From contig CAVOHU010000002.1 in assembly GCA_963695795.1 (NCBI GenBank), positions 341,565-405,564 on the forward strand: a stretch of DNA of 64,000 nt, written 5' to 3'. Made by a program: the position numbers and the translations under genes. Positions within the stretch are counted from its first letter, which is position 1; every line of letters begins with the position of its first letter. The notes under the pieces are model-generated. The model was not told the origin of the DNA and searched no databases. It saw only the letters and a list, made by a program, of their open reading frames with translations. Of the stretch, positions 56,720 through 58,054 are shown piece after piece. This DNA is from an uncultured Acidobacteriota bacterium. GTDB taxonomy: Bacteria > Acidobacteriota > Vicinamibacteria > Vicinamibacterales > JAKQTR01.

Positions 56720-57361
56720 ATGTGGGAATTCCGGTTGGTGTGGCCTGTGGAAAAGCCCAACTGGTGGGATGAGTCTTGGACCCGCGGTGTTGAAGCGCTA
56801 GACCGTCAACGGCAAGAGCCAGAAGTGCGTCCAGACCTCTATCTTGTCCTTCCTGATCGTGTCGACATCGGACTCAAGTTGCGCGGTGGCGCGGAAGGCG
56901 ATTTTGACGCAAAAGTTCTGCACGCGCGCTCAAATGGATGGGAACTCTGGGAGAAGATCGCGTACTTCAGATGGAACAGTCTGGAAGCGACCCGTTTTGG
57001 TGCAATGGTACGGCAGAAGCCTACATCGGATGCCACCCCATCCAATCTGACGCCCACGCGCGGCGTCAAGGACCTTCTCCGAAATGCCGGACTGCCGAAC
57101 TTGGAAGTCAGGGTGGAAAAGAAGCGGATTCAAGCGGCTGCCAGAGAACTCCTGTTCTCGCTGGGTGGCCAGCCGTTGAGTCCGAACTGGCTCGCGGAGC
57201 TCGTGGAAATCCGATTGCCGGAACGCGTTGAGCCTCTATTCTCTGTCTGTGTAGAGACCATGGACCCGCTGCACGGTGGAATGGACATCTTCAACGCGGC
57301 GGGCGCACTGCGCTGCGGGTACCCGGAATTGTTGGTCAGGTACGCCAGGAGGGGTCTGTGA
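56720..57361 (+). CDS. Hypothetical 213-aa soluble protein, possibly CYTH/triphosphate-tunnel-like
   Basis: The ATG at 56720 has GAGGGGG about 7 nt upstream. The local GC is lower than the rest of the window. Beta-strand-like charged motifs occur in CYTH-like order: MWEFRLV, DLYLVLPD..IGLKLRGG, WELWEKI, LEVRVEKKRIQ, LAELVEIRL, SVCVETMD, and C-terminal GYPELL. The canonical ExExK motif is degenerate. Confidence 0.5.
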   Translation: MWEFRLVWPVEKPNWWDESWTRGVEALDRQRQEPEVRPDLYLVLPDRVDIGLKLRGGAEGDFDAKVLHARSNGWELWEKIAYFRWNSLEATRFGAMVRQKPTSDATPSNLTPTRGVKDLLRNAGLPNLEVRVEKKRIQAAARELLFSLGGQPLSPNWLAELVEIRLPERVEPLFSVCVETMDPLHGGMDIFNAAGALRCGYPELLVRYARRGL

Positions 57362-57400
57362 CGAAAGAGGAAGAGGCCGGCCGCGGAAGGGAAGATCGGG

Positions 57401-58054
57401 ATGTGGCAAAGGAGTTCTTGCTCGCCGAGTGACTCCTCCTACCAGGGAGCTTTTGCCAAGAATGAAGACCTGGGTGAACGCCGTGTTCAATTTCACTTAG
57501 GACTCGTCACCGCCTCGGTAGGTGCGGTAGCGATCCTGGCCACAGCCGAGAAGGGCGCGATCTCGACACACCCCGAATACATCGTCTCTATGGCGCTGGG
57601 TCTCTCCGTCTTTCTTCTTGCGACGGGCTTGTTGACCTACGATCGCTTACTTAAGAGAGACGAAACGACGGCGCAATACCATGCGCTACTTGACGACGTG
57701 CGACAGCGGTTCGTCAGCGCCGCGCAGAGTGGCGTGCAGAGACTCAGCCTCCACGGCTACGAGCCATTCCCGAAGCCGAAGAAACGAGTACTCACACGCG
57801 TTGGAAGGTTGGCCCGCCTTTCGTTTGTGATAAACACATGCGTCGCTGGAACCTCGGCAGTGCTATTTCAGATTCTCGTAAGCGGCTGGCCACACTGGCA
57901 AGTTGCGGTTCTCAAGGTTGCCGCCTTTGCGCTGGTCGCGGTGGTGATGGCGGGAATCGGTCAATGGGCTTGGTGGAGAGTTCGGGTACCGCGTGCTCTC
58001 GGCGTAAGCTTCCCCTGGAGATTGACACTCGTTGGCAGACTGCTCCTGGGCTAG
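57401..58054 (+). CDS. Hypothetical 4-TM membrane protein
   Basis: The TM segments are FHLGLVTASVGAVAILATA, YIVSMALGLSVFLLATGLLTY, LSFVINTCVAGTSAVLFQILV and VAVLKVAAFALVAVVMAGIGQWAWW. A basic loop of about 70 aa lies between TM2 and TM3. The start is uncertain (see findings). Confidence 0.5.
   Translation: MWQRSSCSPSDSSYQGAFAKNEDLGERRVQFHLGLVTASVGAVAILATAEKGAISTHPEYIVSMALGLSVFLLATGLLTYDRLLKRDETTAQYHALLDDVRQRFVSAAQSGVQRLSLHGYEPFPKPKKRVLTRVGRLARLSFVINTCVAGTSAVLFQILVSGWPHWQVAVLKVAAFALVAVVMAGIGQWAWWRVRVPRALGVSFPWRLTLVGRLLLG

Follow-up and report, generated by a model that had tools for sequence, protein, structure and literature searches.

A low-GC two-gene cassette from an uncultured Acidobacteriota bacterium encodes a predicted triphosphate-tunnel protein of a new sequence clade and a frameshifted relative of the 8xMP membrane proteins

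Triphosphate tunnel metalloenzymes (TTM), grouped with the CYTH proteins in the family PF01928, are proteins whose eight strands form a tunnel that is followed by a C-terminal helix. The NE1496 triphosphatase, AtTTM3, Escherichia coli YgiF, thiamine triphosphatase (ThTPase), CyaB and Cet1 belong to this group. These enzymes act on triphosphate, polyphosphate, thiamine triphosphate, nucleoside triphosphates or RNA 5' ends; most of those found in bacteria have no established role. The subject of this work is a two-gene cassette of an uncultured bacterium of the order Vicinamibacterales (Acidobacteriota; assembly GCA_963695795.1), situated in a stretch of 64,000 nucleotides of contig CAVOHU010000002.1 that is called here the window. 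Gene 1 of this cassette encodes a soluble protein with a predicted triphosphate-tunnel fold; the product of gene 2 is a membrane protein of four helices, which is related to the Pfam family 8xMP. The reading that we favour, and to which we give an even chance, is that both genes constitute a horizontally acquired module in which a membrane protein would be coupled to a tunnel phosphohydrolase that cleaves a phosphoanhydride bond.

In the active site of TTM proteins the triphosphate is held by basic residues and a first metal site is completed by one invariant glutamate, while the second metal site is an acidic patch formed by two glutamates of strand beta-1, one located mid-sequence and one of the last strand (Martinez et al. 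2015, PMC4641920). Two combinations of a tunnel enzyme with a localising module are described in the literature (PMC4641920 among others): CYTH-CHAD proteins of the YgiF type, in which CHAD binds polyphosphate, and plant TTM1/2, which are tail-anchored in the membrane. The cassette resembles them in this combination, but here the partner is a separate, predicted oligomeric four-helix membrane protein encoded by a coupled gene, and neither a fused CHAD domain nor a tail anchor is present. A two-gene layout of a nucleotide-processing enzyme and a small membrane protein is also found in Pycsar and in the cyclic oligonucleotide-based antiphage signalling systems (CBASS). However, the fold of the gene 1 enzyme differs from that of the Pycsar and CBASS cyclases, gene 2 has no recognisable ligand-sensing domain, the cassette has no match among the defence models of PADLOC, and in some lineages the enzyme is replaced by a NUDIX protein. 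The preliminary description of this locus, made from the sequence alone, knew of no described system with this pair; literature searches likewise found none.

All the gene 1 motifs quoted in that description were located: MWEFR at residues 1-5, LKLR at 52-55, WELWE at 74-78, VEKKR at 132-136, ELVEI at 160-164, VCVETMD at 176-182 and GYPELL at 200-205. In the list of open reading frames (ORFs) gene 1 starts at an upstream TTG (56678); the ATG lies at 56720, and every member of the family alignment begins with MWE. Among the NCBIfam models, the class IV adenylyl cyclase equivalog (CyaB, TIGR00318) gave no match with gene 1. The AlphaFold2 (AF2) model, obtained with an alignment of 30 sequences, has a predicted local distance difference test (pLDDT) of 91.5 and a predicted template modelling score (pTM) of 0.88, and it consists of eight strands and a C-terminal helix. 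Foldseek matches of this model in the PDB have E values of 2e-5 to 1e-2 and probabilities of up to 1.00. Fourteen of the best 18 matches are named CYTH/TTM proteins, two are unnamed Pyrococcus proteins (2dc4 and 1yem), which we take to be CYTH-fold proteins, and the other two are chains of Mediator. At E<=0.001 (probabilities 0.99-1.00) the matches comprise 11 CYTH/TTM proteins out of 14, one Mediator chain and the two Pyrococcus proteins. The named matches include two putative adenylate cyclases (2gfg and 3sy3), HpAC1 (6yp4), the Ziziphus adenylyl cyclase (8h92), thiamine triphosphatase (2jmu/3tvl) and AtTTM3 (5a5y and 3v85), and NE1496 and Cet1 appear among ranks 25-36 (E 0.01-0.04). The proposal that gene 1 has an eight-stranded triphosphate-tunnel (CYTH-like) fold is thus well supported by structure prediction, the PDB matches being of this class apart from the Mediator chains.

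The residues that are invariant or nearly invariant in the wider gene 1 family are E3, R5, R37, D39, Y41, G51, K53, R55, K65, E75, W77, K79, K134, R136, E160, E179, Y201 and P202. The conserved charged residues alternate along each strand (E3 and R5; R37, D39 and Y41; G51, K53 and R55; K65; E75, W77 and K79; K134 and R136; E160; E179), a pattern in which one face of each strand would line the tunnel, much as basic residues and glutamates line that of TTM proteins (PMC4641920). Alternation of conserved arginine or lysine and glutamate on the strands is shared with CYTH/TTM proteins, the conserved blocks are colinear in both, and a comparable membrane-protein gene accompanies canonical CYTH genes (see below). 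However, gene 1 shows no similarity to these proteins at the level of hidden Markov models (HMMs) and differs from them in two strands. The ExExK motif of beta-1, noted from the beginning as degenerate, is replaced by M-W-E-x-R in the family and by x-W-E-W-R in distant members, so that only the second glutamate and the basic residue are kept. The last strand, S175-x-C177-x-E179, faces the E-V-E-I-E of canonical CYTH proteins (E-x-E-x-E) in a colinear, non-significant hhalign alignment, and its cysteine is invariant in the bacterial gene 1 clade. Compared with the site described in PMC4641920, the acidic patch is incomplete. The chemistry of gene 1 may therefore be different from that of canonical TTM proteins.

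A word-indexed search of 5.8 billion proteins retrieved 32 relatives of gene 1, nameless proteins of about 210 amino acids, mostly from soil metagenomes. When 1.84 billion representatives were searched exhaustively with the profile, no more than 21 clusters reached E<1e-10 and 90 reached E<1e-3. In named genomes the gene is found in metagenome-assembled genomes (MAGs) of Acidobacteriota, namely of Vicinamibacterales and subgroup 6, and a second sample (ERR15459715) encodes a protein identical to that of the window. The weaker relatives are proteins of 190-265 amino acids, none of them with a Pfam domain, and two of the ten that were looked up are eukaryotic proteins annotated as hypothetical. 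These two distant relatives (P0084 and P0087 in our numbering of homologs) come from the haptophyte Prymnesium parvum (KAL1527481.1) and from Anaeramoeba ignava (KAJ5077977.1) and share M.WEWR.F, ERTD.Y, GLK.R, LELKV, WEK, K.R.Q, C.EG and GYPEF. As far as its sequences indicate, gene 1 belongs to a small, unannotated clade of Acidobacteriota with distant relatives in protists; by sequence it forms a new clade within a known fold, and the pairing appears undescribed.

Gene 2 requires a correction of its limits. The cassette was first drawn as two ORFs of the + strand, at 56720-57361 (213 amino acids) and 57401-58054 (217 amino acids), which share a common frame and are either separated by 39 nucleotides or overlapping. 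Both ORFs exist, but the second one is the remnant of a frameshifted gene, and the native arrangement is an overlap of four nucleotides (GTGA) that is also found in the loci of the closest relatives (L029 and L030). The N-terminus of the gene 2 family, 'MT...DVAKEFLLAEYS.YQEAF', begins about 25 residues ahead of the start of the drawn ORF, and in the window the frame that starts at GTG 57358 reads ...DVAKEFLLAE and then meets a TGA (57429-31). The alignment of the DNA with three homologous loci (L029, L030 and L001) revealed an extra G at position 57431. When this base is removed, the score against the family HMM increases from 203.8 to 231.1 bits and the coverage reaches profile position 1. 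Because of this first frameshift, the 39-nucleotide spacer and the ATG at 57401 can be regarded as by-products. Since the native stop codon, TAA 58005-07, lies in the third frame, a second +1 insertion is implied near 57980; it displaces this stop from the frame and adds a tail of 16 codons. The support for the second site is weaker, the gain in HMM score being just 1.8 bits. With both bases removed, gene 2 encodes 215 amino acids and scores 232.9 bits with full-length coverage.

Independent information comes from a contig of 3188 nucleotides of the second sample, assembled in Logan, in which an identical gene 1 is followed by a gene 2 of 215 amino acids that overlaps it by four nucleotides. 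The distance from the start of gene 1 to that of the third gene is 1718 nucleotides in this contig and 1720 in the window (ATG 58440), a difference of two bases that agrees with two insertions. No exact match to the repaired gene 2 was found in the protein collection. An assembly-wide indel error is unlikely, given that the window contains ORFs as long as 1045-1288 amino acids; there may be a local assembly error at the frameshift sites. As they stand, the two +1 insertions break the membrane gene, so that in this genome the two genes are probably no longer active together as a module; gene 1 is intact.

A pair in which only the membrane gene has decayed could also be toxin-antitoxin-like, that is, a holin-like membrane toxin restrained by a soluble protein. 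Solo copies of gene 1 are common, the overlap couples both genes tightly, and a few members of the gene 2 family have weak matches with holin families. However, these matches are found in 3-4 of 24 members, are inconsistent and all fall under the cut-offs. In addition, the gene order is variable, and the conserved charged tunnel and the protist relatives point to an independent function of gene 1, as an enzyme or a ligand binder. We consider this explanation improbable.

The first search with gene 2 found four relatives, each of them on the same short contig as a relative of gene 1, and the profile search extended the family to 32 proteins. The sequence NEELGE[KR]R just ahead of the first transmembrane helix (TM1) and arginines after TM2 are invariant in this family. 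The AF2 model of the homolog P0033, predicted as a monomer (pLDDT 88.9), contains two helices of about 50 residues, each lying partly in the cytoplasm and partly in the membrane, and after them a second hairpin. Gene 2 would thus encode a four-helix membrane protein, as had been proposed. No fold match of P0033 was found in the PDB or in BFVD, and the PDB profile search for gene 2 was empty; no gene 2 relatives were found in viral contigs either. Two corrections are needed: gene 2 is broken in the window, and it has a recognisable family, which is related to Pfam 8xMP (PF24838), the octameric membrane protein family. This is the sole recurrent Pfam match of the gene 2 family. This match is seen in 22 of 24 members at E<=5 and in 17 of 24 at E<=0.01, and the gathering score (30 bits) is passed by P0052 (37.6 bits) and P0053 (36.7 bits). 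However, most members, including the window copy, are under the gathering cut-off, and the match comprises only positions ~1-66 of the 136 of the profile, which correspond to the helix at the N-terminus and the first of the membrane hairpins.

The linkage of both genes was evaluated by scanning the six-frame ORFs of all fetched loci with the family HMMs, which gave 21 non-redundant gene 1 lineages, 19 of them with enough flanking sequence. An 8xMP-like gene is adjacent to gene 1 in 13 of these 19 lineages, always on the same strand and either overlapping or within 60 nucleotides. It is located immediately downstream in five lineages (the window, L001, L002, L029 and L030) and immediately upstream in eight (L010, L012, L013/14, L016, L021, L022, L026 and L027). 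The homologs thus co-occur far above chance, and the fact that adjacency is kept despite the flipped order argues for a functional link.

Different enzymes accompany the more distant 8xMP-like proteins. For instance, a canonical CYTH gene of PF01928 (264-282 amino acids) stands after each of the genes of P0053, P0049 and P0048, which lie in three unrelated neighbourhoods; this independently supports the assignment of gene 1 to CYTH proteins. In these partners the ExE and EVEIE motifs are complete. After P0054 comes a divergent protein of 197 amino acids that matches the gene 1 superfamily HMM (E 3e-10). In that locus (L039, 2451-4984), P0054 lies between the gene of an FHA-domain protein and that of the 197-residue protein, whose beta-1 reads V-E-T-R-W-F, and PspC adjoins; judging by these sequences, this pair constitutes a third branch of the pairing. 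P0057 and P0061 are fusions of an 8xMP-like domain with a NUDIX domain at the C-terminus; this NUDIX domain is closest to RppH, but the match stays under the cut-off. The gene of P0051 has a Patatin gene on one side and a NUDIX gene in convergent orientation on the other: at L037 (921-4679) and L038 (1368-5126), an 874-residue Patatin protein is encoded directly 5' of the 8xMP-like gene, which overlaps the convergent NUDIX gene (144 amino acids). This arrangement may represent a different, conflict-type use of the membrane family. P0060, on a short contig, has no recognisable partner. We read the common denominator of these loci as the association of a membrane protein of the 8xMP-like type with a phosphoanhydride-cleaving enzyme, be it a tunnel, a CYTH or a NUDIX protein. 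That an 8xMP-family oligomer and such an enzyme (divergent TTM, CYTH or NUDIX) form a widespread and undescribed two-component system is a tentative proposal, well short of an even chance.

The partners also bear on the possibility that the cassette is a machine like the vacuolar transporter chaperone (VTC) of yeast, in which the tunnel enzyme, as Vtc4 does, would polymerise polyphosphate from ATP and thread it through a membrane oligomer. The gene 1 family lacks the first glutamate of beta-1 and two of the last strand, and Vtc4p is likewise devoid of the acidic patch (PMC4641920). The tight coupling of the enzyme to a small oligomeric membrane protein would also fit. However, E3, E75, E160 and E179 are kept in gene 1, the canonical CYTH partners of 8xMP-like genes preserve their acidic motifs, the NUDIX fusions point to hydrolysis, and neither an SPX domain nor any other VTC feature is present. 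The gene 2 ORF of the window has a single weak match (E 0.27) with DUF202 (PF02656), presumably the membrane domain of VTC, but this match is at chance level and absent from the family-wide scans; a DUF202/VTC membrane subunit was accordingly rejected as an identity for gene 2. A VTC-like machine is therefore improbable.

In the phosphohydrolase module that we favour, the gene 1 tunnel enzyme would be placed at the cytoplasmic face of an oligomeric gene 2 protein and, by analogy, might dock on its charged stalk. Since the NUDIX domain of the fusions comes after the final membrane helix, the enzyme would lie on the side of the N-terminal stalk, taken as the cytoplasm; both termini of gene 2 would then be cytoplasmic. 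Because a NUDIX protein can replace the tunnel enzyme, hydrolysis of a phosphoanhydride bond is likelier than cyclisation. The substrate would belong to a class that includes inorganic tri- or polyphosphate, a nucleotide, a dinucleoside polyphosphate or a 5'-triphosphate end, and the activity of the membrane protein, as a channel, pore or scaffold, would be coupled to that tri/polyphosphate compound. Through the GTGA overlap the two native genes are translationally coupled.

The alternative that motivated the first interest in this locus is that of a defence or abortive-infection module, in which a class-IV-type cyclase produces a cyclic nucleotide that opens a membrane pore, so that the infected cell is killed or arrested. 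Defence systems that use cyclic nucleotides often have small membrane effectors, and the module is rare, patchy and apparently horizontally acquired. Its neighbours are in some cases of the conflict type: toxin-antitoxin (TA) genes in the window (DUF5615/PIN_10 with DUF433, and HTH_37), a methyltransferase, a BglII-type endonuclease and ParE at L035/36, and, at L037/38, the Patatin phospholipase that immediately precedes the 8xMP-like gene. However, housekeeping neighbours are found at six loci, which are most of those examined (L001, L002, L005, L008, L009 and L034): short-chain dehydrogenase, catalase-peroxidase/Fur, ACPS, pyrimidine synthesis, a 315-residue membrane ORF and a P-loop ORF of 545/626 residues. 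In this small sample, the evidence for a location in defence islands is therefore mixed. A search of PADLOC-DB 2.0 was empty for the window proteins, the full-length homologs and the CYTH partners, the best match (PycTM, E 0.054) being at chance level. Besides, gene 2 shows no domain for nucleotide sensing, solo relatives of gene 1 occupy conserved positions and occur in protists, a scan of viral contigs found no gene 2 relatives, and the substitution of the tunnel enzyme by a NUDIX hydrolase in some lineages indicates hydrolysis. The defence layout suggested in the preliminary description thus did not find support, and we regard it as unlikely, if less so than the other alternatives.

Some of these solo relatives deserve description. 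In two MAGs of subgroup-6 Acidobacteria (L008, 2927-6143; L009, 5011-8225) a solo gene 1 relative has the same position, which suggests stable chromosomal inheritance there. It is flanked by the 315-residue multi-pass membrane ORF and by the ORF of 545/626 residues with P-loop NTPase motifs, which, judged by eye alone, look like an FTR1-type permease and an ABC-F ATPase. At L005 (1-1843) pyrB-like, PyrR-like and dihydroorotate dehydrogenase genes are near a solo relative, and at L034 (1-4775) carAB, dihydroorotase and aspartate carbamoyltransferase genes stand directly beside an 8xMP-like/CYTH pair; this recurrence of pyrimidine-synthesis genes may be a coincidence.

Different observations weigh against the module of a membrane protein and a tunnel phosphohydrolase. 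With respect to the fold, the Foldseek TM-scores of gene 1 are low (0.35-0.46, and 0.34-0.46 for the matches at E<=0.001), the Mediator chains among its matches are of the non-catalytic Med18/20 type, and the inward pointing of the conserved residues is read from strand alternation alone. At the sequence level, the searches of Pfam, NCBIfam, PADLOC and the PDB sequences were empty for both the single gene 1 protein and its family profile, neither the CYTH model PF01928 nor any solved TTM protein was matched significantly by sequence, and the hhalign comparison of the gene 1 family with the CYTH partner proteins, although colinear, gave a probability of 1.5% (E 0.034). With respect to catalysis, the position of the first glutamate of ExExK is taken by the initiator methionine or a non-acidic residue in the gene 1 clade, and two of the three last-strand glutamates are serine and cysteine; the two-metal site may therefore be incomplete and binding without hydrolysis is possible. 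On the side of the membrane partner, gene 2 of the window, even when repaired, has no PF24838 match at E<=0.01, and literature searches found no published description of 8xMP/PF24838. Finally, gene 1 is solo in five to six lineages (L005, L008, L009, L018/19, L023/28 and probably L020), and its eukaryotic relatives have no 8xMP-like partner.

The features of the cassette are collected in Table 1. The low GC content had been estimated by eye as mid-50s against high-60s per cent, which is close to the computed values of 58.4% for the cassette and 66.5% for the window; the nearby flanks have 0.65-0.75, and the segment 55600-58400 has 0.594. Both genes have conserved homologs elsewhere, which excludes chance ORFs. 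The closest relatives (L029 and L030, 66-68% identity) are in DNA of 0.54-0.59 GC, and in another Vicinamibacterales MAG the pair has the GC of its host (0.72). Judged by its composition, the cassette was acquired horizontally in this genome, since its GC content (0.584) matches the surroundings of L029/L030 and not the window (0.665).

Table 1. Positions of the features of the cassette in the window
Feature	Position	Strand	Remarks	Basis
Low-GC stretch, ~0.58-0.62	55400-58400		Cassette and gene-poor DNA 5' of it	Composition profile
Shine-Dalgarno-like GAGGGGG	56707-56713	+	6 nucleotides ahead of the gene 1 ATG	Read from sequence
Gene 1, soluble protein of 213 amino acids, predicted triphosphate-tunnel (CYTH-like) fold	56720-57361	+	Intact	ORF, family alignment, AF2, Foldseek
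Shine-Dalgarno-like AGGAGGGG	57347-57354	+	Within the end of gene 1, 3 nucleotides ahead of GTG 57358	Read from sequence
Gene 2, native extent, predicted four-helix membrane protein	57358-58007	+	215 amino acids after repair; start overlaps the gene 1 stop (GTGA)	
ORF of gene 2 as first drawn	57401-58054	+	Longest open frame left after two frameshifts; without the conserved N-terminal helix	
First +1 insertion, extra G, GAG-T[G]AC	57431	+	Creates TGA 57429-31 in the native frame	
NEDLGERR (invariant NEELGE[KR]R of the family)	57461-57484	+	Cytoplasmic end of TM1	Alignments
First membrane hairpin	57485-57640	+	TM1 ~57485-57547, TM2 ~57578-57640	P0033 model helices 13-63 and 73-124; hydrophobic stretches read from sequence
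Basic cytoplasmic helix DRLLKRDETT..VRQRF	57641-57730	+	Invariant arginines R97, R101 and R116 (P0033 numbering)	Model helix 73-124
Second membrane hairpin	57809-57976	+	TM3 ~57809-57880, TM4 ~57902-57976	AF2 helices 151-176 and 182-212
Second +1 insertion	57980	+	Exact base ambiguous in AGAG 57977-57980	Frame analysis

The cassette sits between TA genes and the genes of a sigma-54 activator and a Pvc16 protein. On the 5' side, the TA-type genes are on the - strand (53889-54770: HTH_37 at 53889-54182, DUF5615/PIN_10 at 54169-54543 and DUF433 at 54540-54770), next to the gene of an XRE-type helix-turn-helix protein (54805-55608). Neither Pfam nor tblastn against plasmids confirmed the mobile-element debris reported upstream. 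The + strand segment 56240-56500 encodes the peptide '...ILECSQRRKYLDHVIVWNERSLRR*IRYLACCHEWRTHLSLDTDAP...', with an in-frame stop between both parts, for which the Pfam and plasmid tblastn searches were empty; it may resemble the C-terminal end of DDE-type (rve) transposases. No tRNA gene was found near the island. Two weak repeats surround the low-GC stretch, an inverted one of 27 nucleotides (55526-55552 / 58075-58101, 74% complementary) and a direct one of 26 nucleotides (55769-55794 / 58351-58376, 77% identical), and they could be remnant element ends or chance matches.

On the 3' side, the sigma-54 activator (58401-59438, + strand) consists of AAA+ and Fis-type helix-turn-helix domains only, with no N-terminal sensor or receiver domain recognised; in the second sample the gene caller places its start at the ATG that corresponds to 58440. 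A Pvc16_N gene (60016-60585, + strand) of the extracellular contractile injection system (eCIS) comes next. The location of the cassette directly upstream of these two genes, and the matching arrangement in the second sample, would be expected if it were an accessory, regulator or payload of the eCIS. However, its GC content is unlike that of the eCIS genes, and no eCIS genes are near the pair at the other loci examined. This link was rejected because the neighbourhood is found in this genome only, and we hold it to be very improbable.

The present evidence does not add a new defence system. The gene 1 clade, present in soil Acidobacteriota and in protists, is missed entirely by current family libraries, and the 8xMP-like partner that it has in common with canonical CYTH proteins offers a testable handle both on an orphan membrane family and on these enzymes. 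The window copy constitutes an example of decay, in which the membrane gene of an apparently horizontally acquired pair is already broken. If the proposed mechanism is true, the membrane protein would be a channel or pore that responds to the control of a tri/polyphosphate-type compound, or supplies it, and a new stress, polyphosphate-handling or abortive-infection mechanism would be conceivable. Gene 1 would then found a new clade of tunnel enzymes, with members in Acidobacteriota and protists and an altered metal-site chemistry (W-E-x-R, S-x-C-x-E).

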